A DNA stretch of 64,000 nt from the NCBI GenBank assembly GCA_012514745.1, contig JAAYZR010000020.1:13293-77292 (forward strand), read 5' to 3'. A program made the translations under genes and the position numbers. Under the pieces are notes generated by a model that saw only the letters and a list, made by a program, of their open reading frames with translations, was not told the origin of the DNA and made no database searches. This DNA is from Candidatus Undivivens industriae. GTDB lineage: Bacteria > Omnitrophota > Gorgyraeia > Gygaellales > Profunditerraquicolaceae. Shown here one piece after another: positions 37,089 to 62,751 of the stretch (position 1 is its first letter; the number at the start of each line of letters is the position of its first letter).

Positions 37089-37160
37089 CTGCCCCGCATG
37101 GACTCGAACCATGATAGTCAGATCCAGAATCTGAAGTCCTACCGATTAGACGACAGGGCA
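37089..37160 (-). tRNA. tRNA-Gln (anticodon CUG)
   Basis: Hand-folded cloverleaf: acceptor UGCCCUG/CGGGGCA (U1:A72, as in bacterial tRNA-Gln), D-stem GUCU/GGAC, anticodon loop UUCUGGA, T-arm CAUGG-UUCGAGU-CCAUG. CCA is not encoded. Confidence 0.85.
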
Positions 37161-41307: not shown

Positions 41308-43179
41308 CTATCTCCTCACTTCCACGGCTATCCTGCCGGCGATTCCAGCGGCATCCAGACCGTACCGTTCCAATAATTCCCGCCTCTTGGCGCAGGGAGG
41401 AAATTCCTCCGGCACTCCGAGTTTGATCACCGGCACTCCCAGGATTTCTTCCACCGCCGAGCCGAATCCGCCCTCGACGATACCTTCTTCCACCGTAAAG
41501 ACCGTTTTTCCCCGCGCCGCGATTTCTTTTATCAAGCCGTTGTCCAGCGGCTTGACGAACCTGGCGTTGACCACGTTTCCGGATAAACCTTTTTCTTCCA
41601 GCATGGCCGCGGCTTCCTCAGCGGCCGACACGGCGCCGCCCAGGGCAAATATCGTGAAATCATTTCCTTCTTTCAAAACTTCCGCCCCGGAGAGCTTCAC
41701 CGGAACGGCCATCCCGCCCGTCAGCCTGCGGCGCAGTAAACAAGAAGCCGTCTTGGGATACCTCAGCGAAACCGGCCCTTTCAACGACAACGAAAACTCC
41801 AACATCATCTCCAGGTCGTGCGCGTCCGCAGGGGCCATTATCGTCATATTAGGGATGTGGCGAAGAAAACTTATGTCGAAAATCCCCTGGTGCGTAGGCC
41901 CGTCGTCGCCGACGAGCCCCGCCCGGTCGAGAGCGAAGATTACGTGCAGTCCCTGTAAAGCCACACACTCTATTATCTGATCATACGCCCTCTGTAAAAA
42001 AGTGGAGTATATCGCCGCCACCGGGATCAACCCTTGCCTGGCCAGGCCGGCGGCGAAGCAAACAGCGTGTTCCTCCGCTATTCCGACATCGAAGAACCTT
42101 TGCGGATACTTATCCCGGAAGGCGCCCAAACCGGTGCCCTCGGCCATAGCCGCGGTTATCGCCGTCAGCCTTTTCTCCCGAGCGGCGAGATCGACTATTT
42201 TCCGCCCGAAAACCGAAGTGTAGGTAGCTGCCGAGAGCGGCGCCGGCTCCTGTTTTTTGCCGGCGGACAGATCGAACGGCCCCGTGCTGTGAAAACGCAC
42301 AGGGTCTTTCTCCGCGGGGACAAACCCCTTCCCTTTCTTAGTAATCACGTGCATGAACAAAGGGCCCTTGACCGCGAGTATCTTCTTCATCGCCGGGATC
42401 AGCTGGGCGAGATTGTTGCCGTCGAAAGGGCCGAAATACCGAAAACCCAGTTCCTCGAAAAAAACACCGGGGATAAAAAGGCCTTTTAACCCTTCCTCGA
42501 ATTTGTTGGCCAGCTTGAGAAGTCTTTTGCCTCGCGGCACACGGGAATTAAGAAAAGACTCCAGCGAGCTGCGAAAACGGTTGTAAACCGGCAGAGAGAT
42601 TATCTTGTTGATATAAGTGCTCACCGACCCCACGTTGGGAGCTATGCTCATTTCATTGGTATTCAACACCACCAGCAGGTCTTTTTTCAGGTGACCGGCG
42701 TTATTTAACCCCTCGAAACAGAGTCCGCCGCTCAAAGAGCCGTCGCCGATCACCGCGGCGGCCTTGAATTTCTTTTCCCCTGCTTCGAGATCCCCGGCGC
42801 AGGCGAGGCCGAGGGCCAGGGATACCGCGGTCGAGCTGTGCCCGGTGGTAAAAAGATCGTATTCCGATTCCTCTTTGCAGGGGAAGCCGCTCAGGCCGCC
42901 GTATTTACGCAGCCCGGCGAATCCGGCATTCCTGCCGGTTATGATTTTATGGGCGTAGGTCTGGTGGCCGACATCCCAGACGATCTTGTCCCGCGGGGTG
43001 TCGAGGCAGTAGTGTAGGGCGATCGCGAGTTCCACGGCCCCGAGGCTGGAAGCCAAATGTCCGCCGTTTACGGAGACTACCTCCAGTATACGGCGGCGTA
43101 TTTCACCGGCGAGTTCCGGCAACTTGTCCATGGGCAGCCCGCGCAGGTCGGCGGGAGAATTAACACGTTCCAGCAGCAT
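41308..43179 (-). CDS. dxs: 1-deoxy-D-xylulose-5-phosphate synthase
   Basis: 623 aa; GGHLASSLG, DVGHQTYAHKI, GDG motifs. Confidence 0.95.
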   Translation of the reverse strand: MLLERVNSPADLRGLPMDKLPELAGEIRRRILEVVSVNGGHLASSLGAVELAIALHYCLDTPRDKIVWDVGHQTYAHKIITGRNAGFAGLRKYGGLSGFPCKEESEYDLFTTGHSSTAVSLALGLACAGDLEAGEKKFKAAAVIGDGSLSGGLCFEGLNNAGHLKKDLLVVLNTNEMSIAPNVGSVSTYINKIISLPVYNRFRSSLESFLNSRVPRGKRLLKLANKFEEGLKGLFIPGVFFEELGFRYFGPFDGNNLAQLIPAMKKILAVKGPLFMHVITKKGKGFVPAEKDPVRFHSTGPFDLSAGKKQEPAPLSAATYTSVFGRKIVDLAAREKRLTAITAAMAEGTGLGAFRDKYPQRFFDVGIAEEHAVCFAAGLARQGLIPVAAIYSTFLQRAYDQIIECVALQGLHVIFALDRAGLVGDDGPTHQGIFDISFLRHIPNMTIMAPADAHDLEMMLEFSLSLKGPVSLRYPKTASCLLRRRLTGGMAVPVKLSGAEVLKEGNDFTIFALGGAVSAAEEAAAMLEEKGLSGNVVNARFVKPLDNGLIKEIAARGKTVFTVEEGIVEGGFGSAVEEILGVPVIKLGVPEEFPPCAKRRELLERYGLDAAGIAGRIAVEVRR

Positions 43180-43418
43180 TATTCCTCTTCATCCTTCCCG
43201 TCCTCAAAGGGCTTAAGGTCGAAATCGCCTTTCCTGTTCTTCGAGAGGACTTCTATCTTCTTGCGCGCGCTTTCCAGACGCGAAGAACAGGCGCGCGATA
43301 ATTCTATTCCTTCCTGGTATTTCTTAAGCGCCTCGTCCAAAGTCAATTCGCCCTTTTCCAGGTCTTCGACTATCTTTTCCAGTTTTTTCAACGCCTCTTC
43401 GAATTTAATCTCCGCCAT
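43179..43418 (-). CDS. xseB: Exodeoxyribonuclease VII small subunit
   Basis: 79 aa; FEEALKKLEKIVEDLEKGELTLDEAL. Confidence 0.85.
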   Translation of the reverse strand: MAEIKFEEALKKLEKIVEDLEKGELTLDEALKKYQEGIELSRACSSRLESARKKIEVLSKNRKGDFDLKPFEDGKDEEE

Positions 43419-44751
43419 TTCCGCGCACCTCCGTTACCTGACCGGTTATTTCGCCGTCGTGTAATTTTATCCTTATCTCCTCTCCGGCGGAAACATCCCC
43501 CGCGTTCCTGATCACCCCGCCTGCGGCGGAAAAAGTGATGCTATACCCCCTGGAAAGGACTTTTAAAGGGCTCAATCCGTTAAGATTGGCGGCGGCCGAC
43601 CTCAAAACCGCGGTTTTGATCTGCACTAAATGCGCCCAGGCCGTTGAAGCCCTGCCGGACAGTTCGGAAACTCTCCGGCGGAACTGCTCAAGCATAGCCT
43701 TCGGATTCAACAGCCGCAGTTTCTTGGCGGCGGAGTCCATGCGGCTTGCGCCGATCTCCAGGTAATGCGCCGCGCTCATCTGCATGCGGTGCGCCAGAGC
43801 ATCCAGATCTTCCCTCGATGAACGCGTAAAATCCTGCAATCCCGCCCGCAGAGAAGCTGTAAGCCGGGAAAGTTTCTGTCTCAACTCTTCTTTGTCCGGG
43901 ACTACCAGTTCCGCGGCCGCCGAAGGAGTCGGCGCCCGCAGGTCCGCCGCCAGATCACAGAGGGTCCAGTCTCGCTCGTGCCCCACGGCCGAGATCACCG
44001 GGATCTCCGAATCATAAACCGCCCTCGCCACCGGCTCTTCGTTGAAAGCCCAGAGATCCTCGATACTGCCGCCGCCGCGCCCGACAATTAAAACCTCTAC
44101 GCGCTCATTTTTCCGCGCGCGCGCGTTGTAAACGTTAAACTCCCTGACCGCGGAAGCGATCTCTCCGGCCGCCCCTTCTCCCTGCACCTTGACCGGATAC
44201 AAAATCATATGCATCCCGCTGAAACGCCCGGCCGCCACCTTCAAGATATCTTTAAAGGCGGCGCCGGAGGCGGAAGTGACGACGCCGATGCGAGACGGCA
44301 AATAAGGGATCTTACGCTTATGCTCCGAAGCAAAAAGCCCCTCCTTCTCCAGTCTCTTTTTCAACTGCTCCAGGGCCAGCTGCAGGCTTCCGAGCCCTTT
44401 AGGCTCCAGGCTGCGCACGTAAAGCTGATAGCGGCCGTCCCTCTCATAAACGCTGACGCCTCCGCGGCAAATCAGCTTGTCGCCGTCTTTCAACTCGAAC
44501 TTTATGCCGCGCGCCGTCTGCGGAAAAATGACGCATTTCAACAGGCCGGAGGCGTCCTTCAAATTAAAGAATACGGTGCCTGTGGCTATCCTCGTCGCCC
44601 CGGAAACCTCCCCTTCCACCCACACATCCGGAAACCCCGCCTCCATCAGTTCCTTTATCCGGCGGTTGACCTCCGAGACGGTAAAAATCTTCCGTCCATC
44701 TTCCGGGCGCCCGGTAAAAAAATCGTCTTCATCTTCCGGAAAGTTCTTCAT
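43405..44751 (-). CDS. xseA: Exodeoxyribonuclease VII large subunit
   Basis: OB-fold N-terminus (FTVSEVNRRIKEL...VWVEGEVS) and catalytic core. The track ORF extends to 44802; the ATG at 44751 avoids overlap with the upstream gene. Confidence 0.85.
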   Translation of the reverse strand: MKNFPEDEDDFFTGRPEDGRKIFTVSEVNRRIKELMEAGFPDVWVEGEVSGATRIATGTVFFNLKDASGLLKCVIFPQTARGIKFELKDGDKLICRGGVSVYERDGRYQLYVRSLEPKGLGSLQLALEQLKKRLEKEGLFASEHKRKIPYLPSRIGVVTSASGAAFKDILKVAAGRFSGMHMILYPVKVQGEGAAGEIASAVREFNVYNARARKNERVEVLIVGRGGGSIEDLWAFNEEPVARAVYDSEIPVISAVGHERDWTLCDLAADLRAPTPSAAAELVVPDKEELRQKLSRLTASLRAGLQDFTRSSREDLDALAHRMQMSAAHYLEIGASRMDSAAKKLRLLNPKAMLEQFRRRVSELSGRASTAWAHLVQIKTAVLRSAAANLNGLSPLKVLSRGYSITFSAAGGVIRNAGDVSAGEEIRIKLHDGEITGQVTEVRGNGGD

Positions 44752-44755
44752 CCGT

Positions 44756-46576
44756 CTAAGAAACGTTCTTCTTCTCCTGAACCGGCTGCGTCTCCGGGGC
44801 AACCGGGGACTCCGCCGGCTTGGGCTGTCCGTCCTGCTCAGCCGCGGGAGCAGCGGGCGGTTCCGCGGGTTTCGGCTCGAAGGAGAACAACATCACGGAA
44901 TATGCCGGCAGTTCCGCCGTCTCTTCCAATGTCCCGGAACAGGAAACCGTTCTTTCCTGGGCCGGAGAAAAAACGCAATCTTTAACGCAAGAAAAATCCA
45001 CCACGTATTTACGCGTCAGGTAGTTACCTTTGATGTTCTTCAACGTGATCCTGAGCGGCTGGACGGACGATTTTTTCTTTTCAATCTCATCGTTGCGCGC
45101 AACCGCGTCGGCTAACAGCGAACGCAATCTCTTCGTGACCCCCCAGAGTGACTGCACGTCAGTCTGCCTGGAAAGTAGTCGTCCGTAAGTGCCGTCTTTT
45201 ATCATGCGCAAAAGGATCTTTCTCTCCGCGGCGTTAAGCGATCCCACGCTTCTGGAAAGCATATCCCTGGCTGCTTCGGGATTAACGTAATTATAAACCA
45301 GCACGTTCACCCTCTGGCCGTCCCTGCCGGCCAGCATACCGACATCCCCTTTGCCGGCGGCCGGAGGAGGGAGTTGATAAAAATTGTCCCCGAGTGACTG
45401 GAGCATACGAAAGACACTGTAAGCCGCCTTCGGGCCGCCCTTACCCCGCGAATCGAACCAGAAGGCTCCGATATTGCGGGTGACATGCTTTTTGTTGGAA
45501 TGAAAATCCTCCAAACAGTAATAAATCTGCCCGTCCACCCCGCAGGATTGCATTCCCTTCAGCCGGGCCGGGATGTAACTGGCGGCAATATTGCCTCTTT
45601 CCGAACGCTCCTGCGGCAGGTTCAAACCGTTGTCGTAATTCCACTCGTCTATGATCAACGGCGTGTCCTTGCTGAGGTTGAAATAAGAAAGCCATTCCCG
45701 GATCAGATCCACCGGCAGCTTATTGTAAGCGGTGTTATACTGCTCGGCGAAAGGGTCGGTGGAATAGGCATGCCAGGTGATGAAATCCAGCGGCAGGCCG
45801 TATCGCGAACAATACCGGATCAACTCGTAGATCAAGCTCTTCTCCGGAGCCGCCACGGTGTTGCCCTCTGGATTCTGGTACCACCAACTGGTTCCGGGGC
45901 CGCCGAGATATACCTGCACCTTGTCCTCGTTTTCGACCTCCTTCACCGCCTCGGCCACGCTGCGGTAAAGCAACAGATAATCCTGGGTGCTTCCGAGAAA
46001 AAAATCGTCAAGGTCGGGGGCGCTCCAGACCTCAAACCAGACTTTGTCGTTCCTGAATTCCCTGATGTATTTCTTGACCAGCTTCCTGAATTCCTGCGCA
46101 TCCAACAACTGGCTTCGTTTGTCCAGCACGTTCCCCATTCCGGCGGGGGTGCCGAAAAAAGTCATGATCACCGTTCCGCCGGAAGAGCATATTTTGTCGA
46201 TGATGCCGCGATAATAAGCCGTCTGCTTCTCCCTCTCTTCGCTATTGTCCTTCAACTGGGCAGTCTCCCAGAGGTCGAACTGCAGGCGGTAATAACCGGG
46301 GAATCCGATCTCTTCGCTCCATCTCCTGAACGGCTCGTCCCCGGCTGCCGACTGCGGACGTGAAGGATCAAAATCGCCGCCCCTTCCGCTAAGGTCTATC
46401 GAAGGCGCGAATATTTTCGGACGCGGCAGCGTCTGCCCGGAAATATCAAGAGAGAATTCGATTTGAGCCGGCGTTTCTTTTTTCTCTTCCTGCGCAGAAG
46501 ACGGCCGGCAGAAAAAAGGAGAAGCCGTCAACACGGCCGCCGTCAGCATATATACCGGTAAAAAGGATCTCTTCAT
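44756..46576 (-). CDS. Secreted GH39-like (TIM-barrel glycoside-hydrolase fold) protein with a Pro-rich C-terminal tail; acid/base motif altered
   Basis: Signal peptide; KVWFEVWSAPDL aligns to the GH39/GH5 FEIWNEP acid/base motif with NE replaced by SA; the nucleophile-like IIDEWN is retained; PAEPPAAPAAE... tail. Confidence 0.55.
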   Translation of the reverse strand: MKRSFLPVYMLTAAVLTASPFFCRPSSAQEEKKETPAQIEFSLDISGQTLPRPKIFAPSIDLSGRGGDFDPSRPQSAAGDEPFRRWSEEIGFPGYYRLQFDLWETAQLKDNSEEREKQTAYYRGIIDKICSSGGTVIMTFFGTPAGMGNVLDKRSQLLDAQEFRKLVKKYIREFRNDKVWFEVWSAPDLDDFFLGSTQDYLLLYRSVAEAVKEVENEDKVQVYLGGPGTSWWYQNPEGNTVAAPEKSLIYELIRYCSRYGLPLDFITWHAYSTDPFAEQYNTAYNKLPVDLIREWLSYFNLSKDTPLIIDEWNYDNGLNLPQERSERGNIAASYIPARLKGMQSCGVDGQIYYCLEDFHSNKKHVTRNIGAFWFDSRGKGGPKAAYSVFRMLQSLGDNFYQLPPPAAGKGDVGMLAGRDGQRVNVLVYNYVNPEAARDMLSRSVGSLNAAERKILLRMIKDGTYGRLLSRQTDVQSLWGVTKRLRSLLADAVARNDEIEKKKSSVQPLRITLKNIKGNYLTRKYVVDFSCVKDCVFSPAQERTVSCSGTLEETAELPAYSVMLFSFEPKPAEPPAAPAAEQDGQPKPAESPVAPETQPVQEKKNVS

Positions 46577-46588
46577 TTGTCCCCTTCG

Positions 46589-47368
46589 TCAAGCGGCCGC
46601 GTTGACACGCGTGATCGCCGCGGCCCTGCCGCTTTCCTCATCTATTTCCACCACCACTCCCTGGACCCTGACGTTGTCTTCGGCAACCTCGAAACGCACC
46701 GGCATCCCGGTAACGAACCTGTGCAGGACATGCTCTATCTTTCTGCCGATGACCGAATCATGCGGCCCGCACATCCCTACGTCTGTAATATAAGCCGTGC
46801 CGCGGGGAAGGATACGCTCATCGGCGGTCTGGACGTGCGTATGCGTGCCGAGAACGGCCGAAACCTTGCCGTCCAGGAACCAGCCCATAGCCACTTTTTC
46901 CGAAGTCGCTTCCGCGTGCATATCCACGATTATTATTTTAGCGCGGGAGGAAAGCTCCTGCAGAGCATCCTGCGCGGCCTTGAACGGACATTCTGACGGT
47001 TCCATAAAAACCCTTCCCTGCAGGTTCAACACCCCCACCCGCCTGCCGCCGGGGAGTTCGAAAACCTCTGCGCCGCGGCCCGGGGCCTGGACCGCCGCGT
47101 TCGCCGGCCTCAAAATGCGCCTCTCCTTGTCTATAAGCGGGACTATCTCGCTTTTTTTCCAGATGTGATCCCCTGAAGTGAGCGCGTCGGCGCCGGCGGA
47201 AAACAGGTCCTCCGCCGTCTTCTCGGTTATCCCGGAGCCGCCGGCGGAATTCTCGGCGTTGGCGATCACGAAATCGACTCCGAATTCCTGCTTTATCCCC
47301 GGCAGCGCCTTACGGAAACCGTTCCTCCCGGGGCTGCCGACTATGTCTCCTATGAAAAGTATCTTCAT
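46589..47368 (-). CDS. ymdB: YmdB-like metallophosphoesterase (2',3'-cyclic-nucleotide phosphodiesterase)
   Basis: MKILFIGDIVG...GDH...GTHTHV metallophosphatase motifs; classic position after rny. Confidence 0.85.
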   Translation of the reverse strand: MKILFIGDIVGSPGRNGFRKALPGIKQEFGVDFVIANAENSAGGSGITEKTAEDLFSAGADALTSGDHIWKKSEIVPLIDKERRILRPANAAVQAPGRGAEVFELPGGRRVGVLNLQGRVFMEPSECPFKAAQDALQELSSRAKIIIVDMHAEATSEKVAMGWFLDGKVSAVLGTHTHVQTADERILPRGTAYITDVGMCGPHDSVIGRKIEHVLHRFVTGMPVRFEVAEDNVRVQGVVVEIDEESGRAAAITRVNAAA

Positions 47369-47369
47369 C

Positions 47370-48923
47370 TTATTTCGCGTACTCTATGGCCCTGGTCTCG
47401 CGGATCACGGTTACCTTGATCTGACCGGGATATTCCATGCCCTCTTCTATTTTCTTGCGTATCTCGCGCGCCATGTTAACGGCCTCCGCGTCGGATATCT
47501 TCTCCGGCTGGACGACTACCCGGATTTCCCTGCCCGCCTGAATGGCAAAAGATTTCTCCACTCCCTTGAAAAGGTTGGCTATCGATTCCAGTTTATCCAG
47601 GCGCTTGATATACGTCTCGAGCGTTTCCCTGCGCGCACCCGGACGCGCGGCGCTGATGGCGTCCGCGGCCACGGTAAGCACCGCATAAAAACTGCGTTGC
47701 TCCGCCTCCTCGTGATGCGCCTCTATCGCCCCCACCGTCTCCGGCGATTCGCCGTATTTCCTGGCGAGCTCGGCGCCTATCGTGGCGTGGGTACCCTCGA
47801 CCTGATGATCGATGGCCTTGCCGATGTCGTGCAGCAGCCCTATTCTTCTGGCCAATTTAAAATCAAGACCAAGCTCGGAGGCCATAACGCCGAGAAGATA
47901 AGAAACCTCCTTGGAATGCTGGAGCGCGTTTTGTCCGAAGCTGGTGCGGTATTTCAGGCGGCCGAGCAGTTTTATCAATTCCGGGTGGAGATTCTCCACC
48001 CCGGACTCGAAGGATACCTTTTCCCCTTCCTCCTTGATCTTTGCCTCCATCTCCTTCTTGGTCTTCTCCACAATCTCTTCTATCCTGCCGGGATGGATGC
48101 GTCCGTCGCTGATAAGCTTTTCCAGGCTCAGACGAGCTATCTCCCTGCGCACCGTGTCGAAACAAGAGATGGTCACCGCCTCGGGGGTATCGTCTATGAT
48201 CACATCCACGCCCGTAGCCATCTCGAAAGCCCTGATGTTGCGCCCTTCCCTGCCGATGACCCGCCCTTTCATTTCGTCGCTGGGCAAGGTGACCACGCTG
48301 ACCGTGGATTCGACCGTATGCTCCACCGCGCAGCGTTGTATGGAAAGACTCAATATCTCCTGGGCCTTCTTGGCGGAAGCTTCCTTCAACTCCTCTTCCT
48401 GCTTCTTTATCAACTGCGCTTTCTCGGAGCTTAATTCATCGTTGAGCCTGTTCAGGAGTATCTGCTTGGCCTCGTCGGCGGACAGAGAAGCGATCTTCTG
48501 CAGCCTGTCCTTTTCCTCGTTTATCAAAGACACCAGATGGGCGTCCCTGGCTTTCAGAGAATCTTCCTGTTTCCGCACATTTTCATGGCGGGTTTCTATC
48601 TCTTTCTCTTTTTTCTCCAGCAGATCCAGCCGGCGGTCGATATTCTCCTCTTTCTGAGAGAGCCTTTTCTCCAGAGAGATCAATTCCTGCCTGCGCTCCT
48701 GGGTCTGCTTGTCAAAATCCTGGCGCATGCGGTAAAGCAAATCCTTGGATTCCAGCTCTGCTTCCCTGCGCTTGTCCTGTGCCTCTTTCTTAGCATGTTC
48801 TATAATGGCCTTAACCTGGGCCTCGGCGTCTTTTACTTTCCTTTCCGCGATATAACGGCGCAATAAATAGCCGCAAAGCAGCGCTGCCGCTGCAGTGACG
48901 GGCATCAATAATGCTAACAACAT
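47370..48923 (-). CDS. rny: Ribonuclease Y
   Basis: N-terminal TM, coiled-coil, KH domain ([13 protein letters not shown]), HD domain (HSKEV...LLHDIGK). Confidence 0.9.
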
Positions 48924-51123: not shown

Positions 51124-52476
51124 TCATTTCCCCGAACGAATCTTATCCAGACGCTGTTTTATCCTGGCCTCGTGCCCGATATCGGTGGGTTCGTAAAAAC
51201 GCACTTTGCGGCGGGTATAATCCTGTTGAATGAAATGGCCGGGATAATCGTGGCTGTATTTGTAATCTTTTCCCCTGCCCAGAGAAGCGGCGGCCTTGTA
51301 AGAGGCGTCTTTCAGATGATCGGGGACCTCCTGAACAGTTTCGTTCTCAACTTCGGTATAAGCCTTCTCCAGGGCCAGATAGGCGGCGTTGGACTTCGGC
51401 GCGCAGGCGATATACACCGCGGCCTGTGCCAGAGGGATGCGCGCTTCCGGCATCCCCACGAATTCCGATATCTGCAGGGCGGACGCGGCCAGCACCGACG
51501 CCAGCGGATCGGCGTTGCCGACGTCTTCGGCGGCGCAGATGCAAATTCTGCGCGCTATGAAACGCGGGTCCTCGCCGGCATAAAGCATCTTGGCCATCCA
51601 GTAAAGCGCGGCGTCGGGATCGGAACCGCGCATGGACTTGATAAAAGCCGAAATGGTATCGTAATGCCCGTCTCCGTCCCGATCGTAAAGCACGACCTTT
51701 TTCTGTATTGATTCGGAGGCGGCGGCCAGATCGAACTTTATGCTGCCGTCCGGGGAAGGCGGCGTAGTTAAAACTCCGATCTCCAAAGCGCTGAGGGCGC
51801 GCCTGGCGTCTCCCTCGCAGGAGCGCGCCAGGAATTCCACCGCTTCCGTAGCGGCATGCACATTAAGCGCTCCCAAGCCTCTTTCTTTGTCGGAAATCGC
51901 GCGCCCGATTATACCCTTTATATCCTCTACGCTCAAACTCTTCAACTCGCAGACCAGCGAACGGGAAAGGATCGGGGAGACGAGAGAGAAAAACGGGTTC
52001 TGCACGGTGGCGCCGATCAGCACCACGTTGCGTTCCTCCACGTCCGGCAGAAGCACATCCTGCTGCGCCTTGTTGAAACGGTGTATCTCATCGATGAAAA
52101 GGATGGTCCTTTCCCCGGCCGCCTTTGCCGCTCTTGCCGCCGCGATCTCCTTACGCATCTGCTCGACGTTGGAAGTGGTGGCGTTCAGTGCTACGTAGCG
52201 CGCCTTGGTGATCCTGGAAATGCACCAGGCGAGGGAGGTTTTACCCGTCCCGGGCGGGCCGAAAAGGATCAGGGATGTCAGCCTGTCGGCTTCGATCGCC
52301 CTGCGCAGGAGCTTTCCTTTACCGAGCAGATGCGACTGGCCGGCGTATTCTTCCAGGTCGCGGGGACGCATGCGCACAGCCAGCGGAACGTCCGGATAAC
52401 CGCCCGGGCGGACTTCACCGCCGGTGGCAGAACGTTTTTCATCATCGGGGATTTTCTTTTTATCTTGGGAAGACAT
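51124..52476 (-). CDS. rarA: Replication-associated recombination protein A (AAA+ ATPase RarA/MgsA)
   Basis: GPPGTGKTSLA Walker A, DEIHRFNK Walker B/sensor; the likely start MSSQDKKK is at 52476. Confidence 0.9.
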   Translation of the reverse strand: MSSQDKKKIPDDEKRSATGGEVRPGGYPDVPLAVRMRPRDLEEYAGQSHLLGKGKLLRRAIEADRLTSLILFGPPGTGKTSLAWCISRITKARYVALNATTSNVEQMRKEIAAARAAKAAGERTILFIDEIHRFNKAQQDVLLPDVEERNVVLIGATVQNPFFSLVSPILSRSLVCELKSLSVEDIKGIIGRAISDKERGLGALNVHAATEAVEFLARSCEGDARRALSALEIGVLTTPPSPDGSIKFDLAAASESIQKKVVLYDRDGDGHYDTISAFIKSMRGSDPDAALYWMAKMLYAGEDPRFIARRICICAAEDVGNADPLASVLAASALQISEFVGMPEARIPLAQAAVYIACAPKSNAAYLALEKAYTEVENETVQEVPDHLKDASYKAAASLGRGKDYKYSHDYPGHFIQQDYTRRKVRFYEPTDIGHEARIKQRLDKIRSGK

Positions 52477-52725
52477 GTTTTCGGTCCGAAAAAGGCATAA
52501 AAAAACCCCGCCTTGTGCCGTTGGACAAATGACGGGTTGAACCCATTTTCCAGGTTGGGAGCGATCCTTCCGGCGCCAAGGCGTCGAAAGAGCAAGACTC
52601 CCGTGTTCTTGGTATTGGTTCACCAAACATCATTCATCCTAACGAGCACGGCAGGGAATCTAACGCTGCAAAAGTAAGTATACCACGGCATCCTGCCGTT
52701 GTCAATTCCCGCCGGGGGGACTTCT

Positions 52726-54765
52726 TCAACGCAGAGAAATACCGGGGTGGCCGGAAAGGGCCTGGACGACGGCCGCATGCGCGGGCGCGACCTCCGCTTC
52801 GGTCAACGTTTTCTCTTTCGAGCGGTAAACGCAGGATACCGTCAACCCTTTATAGCCGGCGGATATCTGCTCCCCTTTATAAACATCGGACAACTTCAGT
52901 TCTTTCAATAATCCGCCGCCCGCCCGCCCGGCGAGCTCGAAGACATCCCGCAGTGATATCTCCTCTTTCAACAACAGGCTGATATCGCGGGTCACCGCCG
53001 GATAAAGAGCCATTTTGCGAAAACTCTTGCGCCGAGCCAGGCGCGAACGTACAACCGGTTCCAACCTTATCTCGGCGGCCGCCGCGCTCCGGTTTTTTAT
53101 GTCGAATGCCGCGGACTGCTTCTTGTCCAAAACAATAACTTCTCCCAGCTTTTCGTCTCCCGCGTATACGGAGATATTCCCGCCTACGGAATGCTGCCTG
53201 AAAGAATAATCCTGTACTCCCGCCCAGGAAAAGAGTTCCTCAAGCGCACCCTTTATGTGCAGGGGGCCGAATTCTTCCTCGCAGAACGAACTGCCGTTAA
53301 AATACCTGCGCGTGCCGCAGACCGTCAGAGCCAGTACTTTTTCTTCCCTGTGCCCGGAAGAAGGAGTCATATAATAAATGTCCGCGACCTCGAAAAACCG
53401 CAGGTCTTCCTGTTTTTGATTAATGTTATACGCCAGACAGCGCAGTAGTCCCGGCACGACCGAGGTGCGCAGGACTTCCTGTTCGCGGCTCAAAGGGTTT
53501 AAAACCTCTATCGCCTCGCCCGGTTTCTCCGAAATTACTTCCAGTGAAGTTTTCTCCACAAGACCGTAGGTTACGGTTTCATGGAATCCCTGTCCGGCGA
53601 TAAGTCTTTTAATCCCGGAAACGCACTGCCAGGAGGACAACCCGGACGGATCGGCCGAGACGAAAGGGAGAGTGGGGACTATCCTGTCGTATCCGTATAT
53701 GCGCGCGATCTCCTCCTCCAGGTCGGCCTGCTGTCCGACGTCTTTCCTGAAAAGAGGGACTTCCACTTTGAGCGTGGACGAGGAGACTTTCTTCACTTTA
53801 AATCCCAGGCCGGAGAGAATACGGTAAGCCTTTCCTGTGGCCAGCTTGATATTCAAAAGTTTCTCGGCCCCGGTAACGGAAAATTCGATCTGCTTGCGTC
53901 CGGCGGCCCCGGAGCCCTTGCGGATAAAAGCCTGCGCTTTCCCGCCGCAGAGAGAAACAATAAGCATCACCGCGCGCTCCACCGATAATTTGACCCTTTC
54001 GGCGTCCACCCCTCTTTCGAAACGGTAGGACGCTTCTGTCTGCGCGGCCATCAAACGACAGCCTTTTCTTACCAACACAGGGTCGAAAATCGCGCCTTCC
54101 AGCAGAACGTTGACTGTACCCGAAGAAACCTCGCTCGCTTCCCCGCCCATGATTCCGGCCGCGGCCACCGGCTTACCGCTGTCGGCGATGATCAGTATTT
54201 CGGGCGTCAAAAGATGGGTTTTCCCGTCTATGGTGGTCAGGCTCTCTCCCTGTCCGGCCCGGCGCACGATTATCCGGCCTCCGGATATCTTGTCCAGATC
54301 AAAGGCGTGCAAGGGCGCGCCCCATTCAAAAAGGGCGTAATTGGTTATGTCCACTATGTTATTTACGCTCCTGCAGCCGACACTTTCCAGCCTCCTGCGC
54401 AGCCATTCCGGCGAAGGCCCGACCTTTACGCCTTTTATGACCGTAGCGGTATACAAAGGGCAGTCCCGGACGCTCTCCAGGGAAACGGAAACCCCGGCAA
54501 CCTTGCTCTTACCGGGAACGCTCTTGAAGAATCCGGCGGGAGCCTTGAATTTTTTACCGAGGATCGCGGAAGCCTCTCTTGCCATGCCGGTCATGCAAAA
54601 ACAGTCGGAGCGGTTGGAAGTGATCTCGGCGTCGAATATGAAATCCCCGTCCTGCTGAATAACGGAACCGATCTCGTGCCCGGCCATGGTGAATTTATGC
54701 GCCAGGGTCTCCGCGTCCACTGTTATCTTGACGAAATCTTTCATCCAGTTATAACTGAATTTCAT
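52726..54765 (-). CDS. pheT: Phenylalanyl-tRNA synthetase beta subunit
   Basis: MKFSYNWMKDFVKI N-terminus; 679 aa. Confidence 0.93.
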   Translation of the reverse strand: MKFSYNWMKDFVKITVDAETLAHKFTMAGHEIGSVIQQDGDFIFDAEITSNRSDCFCMTGMAREASAILGKKFKAPAGFFKSVPGKSKVAGVSVSLESVRDCPLYTATVIKGVKVGPSPEWLRRRLESVGCRSVNNIVDITNYALFEWGAPLHAFDLDKISGGRIIVRRAGQGESLTTIDGKTHLLTPEILIIADSGKPVAAAGIMGGEASEVSSGTVNVLLEGAIFDPVLVRKGCRLMAAQTEASYRFERGVDAERVKLSVERAVMLIVSLCGGKAQAFIRKGSGAAGRKQIEFSVTGAEKLLNIKLATGKAYRILSGLGFKVKKVSSSTLKVEVPLFRKDVGQQADLEEEIARIYGYDRIVPTLPFVSADPSGLSSWQCVSGIKRLIAGQGFHETVTYGLVEKTSLEVISEKPGEAIEVLNPLSREQEVLRTSVVPGLLRCLAYNINQKQEDLRFFEVADIYYMTPSSGHREEKVLALTVCGTRRYFNGSSFCEEEFGPLHIKGALEELFSWAGVQDYSFRQHSVGGNISVYAGDEKLGEVIVLDKKQSAAFDIKNRSAAAAEIRLEPVVRSRLARRKSFRKMALYPAVTRDISLLLKEEISLRDVFELAGRAGGGLLKELKLSDVYKGEQISAGYKGLTVSCVYRSKEKTLTEAEVAPAHAAVVQALSGHPGISLR

Positions 54766-62390: not shown

Positions 62391-62467
62391 TGGTGGGCCC
62401 AAAGGGACTCGAACCCCTGACCTTCACGATGTCAACGTGACGCTCTAACCAACTGAGCTATGAGCCC
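62391..62467 (-). tRNA. tRNA-Val (anticodon GAC), CCA encoded
   Basis: GGGCUCAUAGCUCAGUUGGUUAGAGCGUCACGUUGACAUCGUGAAGGUCAGGGGUUCGAGUCCCUUUGGGCCCACCA; cloverleaf folded by hand. Confidence 0.9.
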
Positions 62468-62573
62468 GACTAAATTTGTTTCCCGCCGTGGATCTGATAA
62501 TCGAGAACTTCCAGCGAATCAAATCTCGATTGCTCCGTGCGCTGTTTAAAGAACGTATTTAACAGCGCACTAC

Positions 62574-62657
62574 TGCCGAGGAAGGGAGTTGAACCCTTAA
62601 GACCTTGCGGTCGCGGGATTTTAAGTCCCGTGCGTATGCCAATTTCGCCACCCCGGC
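62574..62657 (-). tRNA. tRNA-Leu (anticodon UAA), long variable arm, CCA not encoded
   Basis: GCCGGGGUGGCGAAAUUGGCAUACGCACGGGACUUAAAAUCCCG...GGUUCAACUCCCUUCCUCGGCA. Confidence 0.9.
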
Positions 62658-62676
62658 CCGGTACATTTGTTAAACC

Positions 62677-62751
62677 TGGAGGCGGCAAGCGGATTCGAAC
62701 CGCTGAATAGTGGTTTTGCAGACCACTGCCTTACCACTTGGCTATGCCGCC
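62677..62751 (-). tRNA. tRNA-Cys (anticodon GCA), CCA encoded
   Basis: GGCGGCAUAGCCAAGUGGUAAGGCAGUGGUCUGCAAAACCACUAUUCAGCGGUUCGAAUCCGCUUGCCGCCUCCA. Confidence 0.9.

Follow-up and report, generated by a model that had tools for sequence, protein, structure and literature searches.

A gene encoding a GH39-like protein (44756..46576, minus strand) has been identified in a stretch of 64,000 nucleotides of contig JAAYZR010000020.1 from Candidatus Undivivens industriae, referred to here as the window. The protein is a GH39 member by homology and fold, yet it lacks the acid/base Glu of the family, which is replaced by Ala at position 186. The same loss is found throughout a family of homologues confined almost only to Candidatus Omnitrophota, in which the gene lies within a constant block of six genes; these family-level results are the new part of this analysis. 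Acid/base loss common to the whole clade, combined with a constant gene block, suggests that the protein has a conserved, non-standard job. Clan GH-A proteins without an acid/base residue have precedents; a clade-wide conserved pattern in such an unusual context is notable.

To our knowledge, very little is known about the cell-surface biology of Omnitrophota, on which a phylum-wide exported protein, with its highly conserved sugar pocket and its gene in a housekeeping block, would provide a concrete handle. These bacteria are widespread, uncultured and mostly ultra-small, and are considered dependent on, or predators of, other cells (PMC10066038). Knowing the ligand would reveal a glycan that is conserved either in the envelope of Omnitrophota or in their hosts. 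The clade is also a natural experiment, in which a clan GH-A scaffold with its acid/base residue changed to Ala has been held through deep divergence. Should the protein prove active, nature would have produced a rare equivalent of the acid/base mutants made in the laboratory; should it prove inactive, bacteria would offer a clear example of how a glycosidase became a binding protein. No description of the clade was found in the literature on Omnitrophota GH39 enzymes or glycoside hydrolases, on inactive GH39 proteins or on the Velamenicoccus proteome. Members are labelled "beta-xylosidase" or "hypothetical protein" in some sources, and the former name should not be carried by proteins of this clade.

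The encoded protein and its assignment to GH39

The coding sequence is complete and encodes 606 amino acids followed by a TAG stop codon. A Shine-Dalgarno-like GAAGGGG, a putative ribosome-binding site read from the sequence, lies at 46581..46587, 4 nt upstream of the ATG and within the 12-nt gap behind the ymdB stop codon. This element and all parts of the gene given below are on the minus strand. The protein is composed of a signal peptide (aa 1-28, consisting of MKRS, a hydrophobic core and SSA before Q29; 46493..46576), a (beta/alpha)8 catalytic-type barrel (approximately aa 38-395; 45392..46465), a C-terminal beta-sandwich with a helical insert (aa 396-568; 44873..45391) and a disordered Ala/Glu/Pro-rich tail (aa 569-606; 44759..44872), in which aa 580-606 have a pLDDT below 50. 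Fold features were taken from DSSP and the pLDDT of an AF2 model, and the C-terminal domain was recognized by secondary structure and by alignment to GH39 accessory domains. This domain holds a conserved C530-x3-C534 pair, which is compatible with a location outside the cytoplasm.

The signal peptide, called heuristically, is a conserved character of the family. A hydrophobic N-terminal region that closes with a conserved [F/S]-A-Q was found in 113/116 members, with A28 and Q29 each conserved to 90% or more. Since a lipobox-like pattern occurs in only 7 members, the possibility of a lipoprotein signal was dismissed. The C-terminal tails vary from 5 to 134 aa across the family and consist of Ala, Glu and Pro to 45%, versus 17% in the body of the protein. 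No conserved terminal motif was found in these tails; a C-terminal sorting motif, K-K-x-x-P, was suspected and rejected, being present in only 22/121 members. Both the signal peptide and the Pro/Ala/Glu-rich tail had been noticed in an earlier sequence-only reading of this DNA, and both are borne out by the family.

The protein matches the Pfam family PF01229 (GH39) with an E value of 6.4e-18 and 65.3 bits (cutoff 26), and PF01229 is present in all 120 best-listed homologues. An NCBIfam search of the protein gave noise only. A PDB-wide phmmer search returned GH39 beta-xylosidases only, with 6uqj_A as the top match (E 9e-11). The (beta/alpha)8 barrel and the C-terminal beta-sandwich accessory domain expected of GH39 are both present. 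The translation reads KVWFEVWSAPDL at aa 178-189 and IIDEWN at aa 308-313 (45638..45655). In the phmmer alignments, W184-S185-A186-P187 stands opposite W-N-E-P, whereas D310-E311-W312 stands opposite T-E-W. E311 sits at the C-terminal end of beta7 (predicted strand 307-312) and is aligned to Glu279, the nucleophile of 6UQJ. WSAP (aa 184-187; 46016..46027) occupies the C-terminal end of beta4, where GH39 enzymes carry the acid/base Glu in Asn-Glu-Pro; at the level of sequence and topology, both alignments and family conservation place S185 at the canonical Asn and A186 at the acid/base Glu.

The protein therefore combines E311 with a non-ionisable residue at the acid/base position, as do retaining enzymes devoid of an acid/base, and has the glycosidase fold, the conserved pocket and the missing catalytic residue (at least one) of a pseudoenzyme. 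These alignments and fold matches agree with the sequence-only reading, which had recognized a GH39/clan GH-A barrel in which Asn and the acid/base Glu were both replaced (Ser, Ala) and a nucleophile-type IIDEWN was retained. A spurious motif match in a protein outside clan GH-A found no support and is refuted.

Loss of the acid/base residue and conservation of the pocket

A word-indexed search of 5.8 billion proteins gave more than 783 matches, and the best 120 were analysed together with the query (121 sequences). These 120 homologues are full-length, approximately 45% identical and from Candidatus Omnitrophota/Omnitrophica wherever named. In a scan of one genome per GTDB species, 261 GH39-like loci were detected, and the best 80 of them are almost all titled Omnitrophota. 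The acid/base replacement first seen in the single protein proved to be fixed across the clade: among 206 sequences checked, Ala occurs in 201, Ser/Thr in 5 and Glu in none. The 121 sequences contributed 118 Ala and 3 Ser/Thr to this count, and position 186 of 85 loci contributed 83 Ala and 2 Thr. The preceding residue is more variable (Ser 97, Asn 12, Thr 11 and Asp 1; n=121), and E311 is kept in 206/206 (121/121 and 85/85). One divergent representative (P0123) has lost many conserved residues together, the nucleophile included (WDNP, DAWN), and looks like a degenerate offshoot.

The clade is well separated from its relatives. When 1.84 billion cluster representatives were searched exhaustively with phmmer, a sharp break was observed between the family, which scores up to 589 bits with full-length members above 350, and the next full-length relatives outside the clade, which score at most 144 bits. 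Nearly all distant relatives (81+ aligned to the family HMM) carry W-[N/x]-E-P, in most cases WNEP, plus E-W-N. Profile-profile comparison of the family with 49 distant relatives gave a probability of 100 and an E value of 8e-79 over 476 columns, with the consensus YEVWSAPDL in the family against YEVWNEPdl in the relatives. The named nearest canonical relatives belong to other phyla, namely Abyssubacteria, Chloroflexota and Woesearchaeota. Since nearly all distant relatives keep the Glu and the whole clade is without it, the acid/base loss is a derived, clade-defining character. The top PDB match of the family profile is 2bfg_A (WNAP), which scores 45.8 bits versus 42.4 bits for wild-type XynB1.

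The -1/+1 subsites of 6UQJ are formed by His61, Phe118, Asn161, Glu162 (acid/base), Phe168, His228, Tyr230, Glu279 (nucleophile), Tyr284, Trp317, Phe323, Glu325 and Phe337, with Lys166 and Asp167 on the positive side (PMC7242879). Residues were mapped through the phmmer alignment, in which the SEQRES index minus 6 gives the numbering of the 6UQJ paper, as verified on four residues. Phe168, His228, Glu279, Phe323 and Phe337 are kept as F192, H269, E311, F358 and F372, respectively, all of which are invariant in the family, and Tyr230 is kept as Y271 (Tyr in 106 and Phe in 15 of 121 sequences). Asn161 and Glu162 are changed to S185 and A186, and Lys166/Asp167 to D190/D191. Tyr284 of the +1 subsite corresponds to the invariant N319, beside a three-residue insertion bearing the invariant D315. 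Trp317 and Glu325 are replaced by Y353 (Phe/Tyr in the family) and S360 (Asn/Asp/Ser in the family), respectively. From an R-x-H versus R-L-Q pattern in the nearest canonical relative, we infer that His61 may correspond to Q99. The sugar cage and nucleophile are thus preserved but several of the polar -1/+1 residues are changed, so this is not a xylosidase pocket.

Despite an overall identity of approximately 45%, 40 columns are invariant, and conservation reaches 90% or more in many others. These columns cluster in the loops that follow the barrel strands at their C-terminal ends, namely D61-LSGRG, R97-x-Q99...W103-E104, D152, E182-x-W184, D188-x-D190...F192, G225-x-P227...W232...N239, W268-H269, E311-W312-N313-x-D315...N319...R324 and Q350...E356-D357-F358...N368-x-G370-x-F372. 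A core of E182, W184, D188, Y200, Y204, W268, H269, E311, W312, N313, D357 and K383 is common to the clade and 81 canonical relatives. Invariant residues that are specific to the clade in this comparison include E104, D190, D315, N319, R324, R338, E356 and N368. As judged from these alignments, the pocket is under strong purifying selection. The acidic loop PDLDDF (aa 187-192; 46001..46018) is nearly invariant (D188 in 121/121, D190 in 114/121 and F192 in 121/121 sequences) yet is modelled with a pLDDT below 50, which suggests a mobile functional loop.

A conserved block of housekeeping genes

The gene belongs to a block of six genes (rny, ymdB, the GH39-like gene, xseA, xseB and dxs), all on the minus strand. 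The first gene, rny (47370..48923), encodes RNase Y (Pfam RNase_Y_N, KH and HD) and is followed by ymdB (46589..47368; Pfam YmdB, E 3e-111), which is directly upstream of the GH39-like gene and co-oriented with it. Directly downstream, xseA (43405..44751; Pfam Exonuc_VII_L, E 5e-94) and xseB (43179..43418; Pfam Exonuc_VII_S) encode the large and small subunits of exonuclease VII, respectively, and the likely ATG of xseA is at 44751, 4 nt past the TAG of the GH39-like gene. The last gene, dxs (41308..43179; Pfam DXP_synthase_N, E 8e-108), encodes DXP synthase.

Four contigs whose homologues share 44-48% identity have the same gene order, and adjacent genes there are separated or overlap by no more than 17 nt. 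Tblastn searches with the six window proteins found the block complete in 70/85 loci; the other 15/85 loci contain a partial block in the same order, and none is contradictory. The sequence-only reading had described the gene as squeezed between xseA and ymdB. Its near-touching boundaries are real, but the arrangement is part of a strictly conserved six-gene order and not a mere curiosity of this genome. Consensus scans for promoters and terminators inside the block gave nothing above shuffled expectation, and the top promoter-like site lies upstream of rny. Because of the fixed order, the tight spacing and the lack of internal promoter or terminator signals in these scans, the GH39-like gene appears to be transcribed within a conserved housekeeping unit. 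A xylosidase for nutrient scavenging or xylan utilisation was excluded, since the genomic context is not a polysaccharide-utilisation locus.

Possible functions and known systems

The explanation preferred here, tentatively, is a non-hydrolytic sugar-binding pseudo-glycosidase with a housekeeping role in the envelope. The protein is predicted to be exported to the periplasm or the surface and descends from a retaining GH39 glycosidase. The ancestor of the Omnitrophota-wide clade lost the acid/base Glu (to Ala) together with the neighbouring Asn (to Ser/Thr/Asn), which normally binds the sugar 2-OH and stabilises the transition state. The clade has retained the Glu at the nucleophile position and the cage of aromatic and His residues in the -1 sugar pocket; a specific glycan would be held in the preserved pocket, and E311 would serve binding and not turnover. 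The ligand would more likely be a constitutive envelope or surface glycan than a food polysaccharide, because the gene is grouped with housekeeping genes. This explanation is favoured because constraint on the Asn has weakened together with the loss of the Glu, because the pocket has changed at several further polar positions and because clan GH-A contains binding-only derivatives such as Klotho. Against it, E311 is invariant, as are D310, W312 and N313, which is exactly what an enzyme working with the nucleophile alone would show; the clade-specific invariant carboxylates on the pocket loops (E104, D190, D315 and E356) are candidates for a relocated acid/base; and housekeeping synteny is a weak hint of function.

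The invariance of E311 and the conservation of D310, W312, N313, H269 and Y271 around it would also be accounted for by a rather unlikely catalyst that forms a glycosyl-E311 intermediate and needs no acid from the protein. Its substrate may be an activated glycoside, linked to phosphate, pyrophosphate or another good leaving group, or an anionic group of the substrate (uronate, phosphate or pyruvate) may fill the cavity left by the change from Glu to Ala and act as the acid/base in a substrate-assisted reaction, for which R324, R338 and R367 are candidate clade-specific invariant Arg residues that could hold the anion. The outcome could be transfer to an acceptor instead of hydrolysis, which would place the protein beside myrosinase, a structural neighbour (1e4m), and make it nature's version of the engineered thioglycoligases. 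The fixed residue is Ala, the one most used in engineered acid/base mutants, and not a random replacement, and the family profile scores the XynB1 E160A mutant above the wild type, as given above. The entry of this mutant, 2BFG, is described as containing a dinitrophenyl-xyloside and a covalently bound xyloside (entry title; PMC7242879), so an activated donor is able to glycosylate a GH39 enzyme even after its acid/base has been removed. Such catalysis is opposed by the Asn for the 2-OH, which is not conserved (S/T/N/D) whereas myrosinase keeps it, and by the neighbourhoods of the gene and its homologues, in which no gene for the synthesis or use of activated donors was found; deglycosylation would also still need a base or an anionic acceptor. 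A broader version of this idea, in which the protein is an essential, phylum-wide extracytoplasmic enzyme that builds or remodels the envelope or attaches to host cells, by nucleophile-only glycosyl transfer from activated donors (e.g., polyprenyl-pyrophosphate- or phosphate-linked glycans) or by substrate-assisted acid/base catalysis, is quite doubtful.

An ordinary retaining glycosidase, in which proton transfer has been taken over by another conserved carboxylate, is unlikely, less probable than the nucleophile-only catalyst but more so than its broader version. The candidates would be D188/D190/D191 in the beta4 loop, E356 after beta8, E104 after beta3 and D315, whose three-residue insertion after beta7 replaces the +1 Tyr region. 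The clade keeps E104, D190, D315 and E356 without exception or almost so, and the 81 canonical relatives do not conserve them; the pocket is strongly constrained, and the almost invariant loop 187-192 has the low pLDDT expected of a functional mobile loop. However, the acid/base of the N-E-P motif on beta4 is among the most constant features of clan GH-A, nearly all of the 81+ distant relatives keep this Glu, and in the clade its companion Asn is degraded too. The loss of a catalytic residue, taken alone, would also fit a decaying relic or pseudogene of a xylosidase without function, an extremely improbable explanation that is effectively refuted by intact full-length frames in 261 species-level loci, the 40 invariant columns, the conserved pocket, the fixed synteny and the conserved signal peptide.

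The GH39 beta-xylosidases of Xanthomonas citri (XynB, 6UQJ), Geobacillus (XynB1, 2BS9) and Thermoanaerobacterium (XynB, 1PX8) are the top sequence and fold matches. They share with the GH39-like protein the three-part architecture of (beta/alpha)8 barrel, beta-sandwich and helical elements, the nucleophile Glu and the equivalents of His228, Tyr230, Phe168, Phe323 and Phe337. The GH39-like protein differs from them in its low identity (14-23%), its export and its location in a housekeeping block instead of a xylan-utilisation locus. The W-N-A-P of engineered XynB1 E160A (PDB 2BFG) is almost the natural sequence of the clade; however, 2BFG is a laboratory mutant of an otherwise intact xylosidase, whereas the Ala of the clade is natural, fixed and accompanied by other changes in the pocket. 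The closest proteins outside the clade are uncharacterised canonical WNEP relatives (e.g., P0130, Candidatus Abyssubacteria RJP25475.1), which are 30-34% identical, collinear over 476 columns and have the W-rich beta5 loop and the C-terminal domain in common with the clade. These relatives keep the acid/base Glu, and the rny-ymdB/xseA context is not known for them. PslG, the GH39 exopolysaccharide hydrolase of Pseudomonas, is a fold match (5bx9, 4zn2) and likewise a bacterial protein outside the cytoplasm, where it acts on the polysaccharide of its own cell. PslG retains the full catalytic pair of Glu residues and is encoded in the psl biosynthesis operon, whereas in the GH39-like protein the acid/base is missing and no genes for polysaccharide synthesis lie nearby; a PslG-like role was rejected because the genomic context is a housekeeping block and not an exopolysaccharide locus.

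Myrosinase (GH1, clan GH-A) and the engineered thioglycoligases resemble the GH39-like protein in having a retaining GH-A scaffold in which the nucleophile is kept and the acid/base is absent. Myrosinase has Gln at the acid/base position, keeps the Asn and acts on S-glycosides that have a good leaving group, with ascorbate as the base; the neighbourhood of the GH39-like gene gives no hint of a substrate or cofactor of this type. The likeness to a natural glycosynthase proposed in the sequence-only reading was mistaken, as engineered glycosynthases lack the nucleophile, which is kept here, and retaining enzymes without an acid/base are thioglycoligases or myrosinase. The other roles put forward in that reading, a hydrolase repurposed for binding or a transglycosidase-like enzyme, are plausible. 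Klotho (GH1) and the chitinase-like lectins (GH18) are glycosidase-derived pseudoenzymes of eukaryotes and belong to other GH families, and binding by the GH39-like protein would be a function of the same kind. By analogy, its counterparts would be the thioglycoligases and myrosinase if it is catalytic, and Klotho and the chitinase-like lectins if it only binds.

Genes and RNAs around the six-gene block

The conserved neighbourhood of the six-gene block (rny-ymdB-[GH39-like]-xseA-xseB-dxs) extends beyond the block itself in the family loci L001-L005. The genes located 5' of the block in these loci include pheT, (MgsA-type AAA), DUF5981, (NifU) and 5-formyltetrahydrofolate cyclo-ligase, and those located 3' encode ferredoxin, the 2-oxoacid:ferredoxin oxidoreductase subunits and GltX (gltX). 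The block and its conserved flanking genes form one long housekeeping super-operon.

Almost all gene-like long open reading frames of the window (1-64000; GC content approximately 55%) are carried on the minus strand, and the GC skew is negative throughout the 40-50 kb region. Matches to the Rfam tRNA model RF00005, likewise on the minus strand, comprise a cluster of three tRNA genes (62394-62751) and a single isolated gene (37089-37160). An Rfam match to 6S/SsrS RNA (minus strand, 52501-52660; 56.4 bits, gathering cutoff 46.4) is situated directly 3' of the open reading frame 52726-54765 (679 aa). It shares positions with the 5' end of another open reading frame, 51124-52626. The start called for that second frame is an upstream TTG, and its true start is therefore probably located further downstream.

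Taxonomic labels and gene copies

Several records containing the GH39-like gene and the same six-gene synteny have genome titles naming Planctomycetales, Dehalococcoidales, Margulisiibacteriota or Patescibacteria (L008, L014, L015, L017, L024, L026, L029, L053, L054 and others). The genomes behind these titles are probably Omnitrophota metagenome-assembled genomes (MAGs) whose taxonomy was labelled loosely or incorrectly. The GH39-like gene is present in two copies, on separate contigs, in MAG207 (L032/L056) and JPNA_metabat.7 (L061/L072), with an identity of approximately 92% within each pair. Co-binning of two strains is a more likely explanation of these pairs than true paralogy.

The altered active site and its relatives

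The loop PDLDDF (aa 187-192; minus strand, 46001-46018) directly follows the position of the missing acid/base. Its sequence is nearly invariant, yet its pLDDT falls below 50, as it does in just two other segments of the protein, a combination that may indicate a mobile functional loop.

The divergent family member P0123, a protein of 556 aa from a JGI metagenome (36% identical, 361 bits), has also lost the nucleophile (DAWN). Many pocket residues that are invariant in the clade are altered in this protein (D61N, E104Q, D188T, D315G, R324H and E356A). P0123 may represent a second step of degeneration.

The top PDB match of the family profile is 2bfg_A, the engineered acid/base mutant E160A (WNAP) of the GH39 beta-xylosidase XynB1. 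This chain outscores the wild-type chains by 3.4 bits because the natural sequence of the clade resembles the laboratory mutant.
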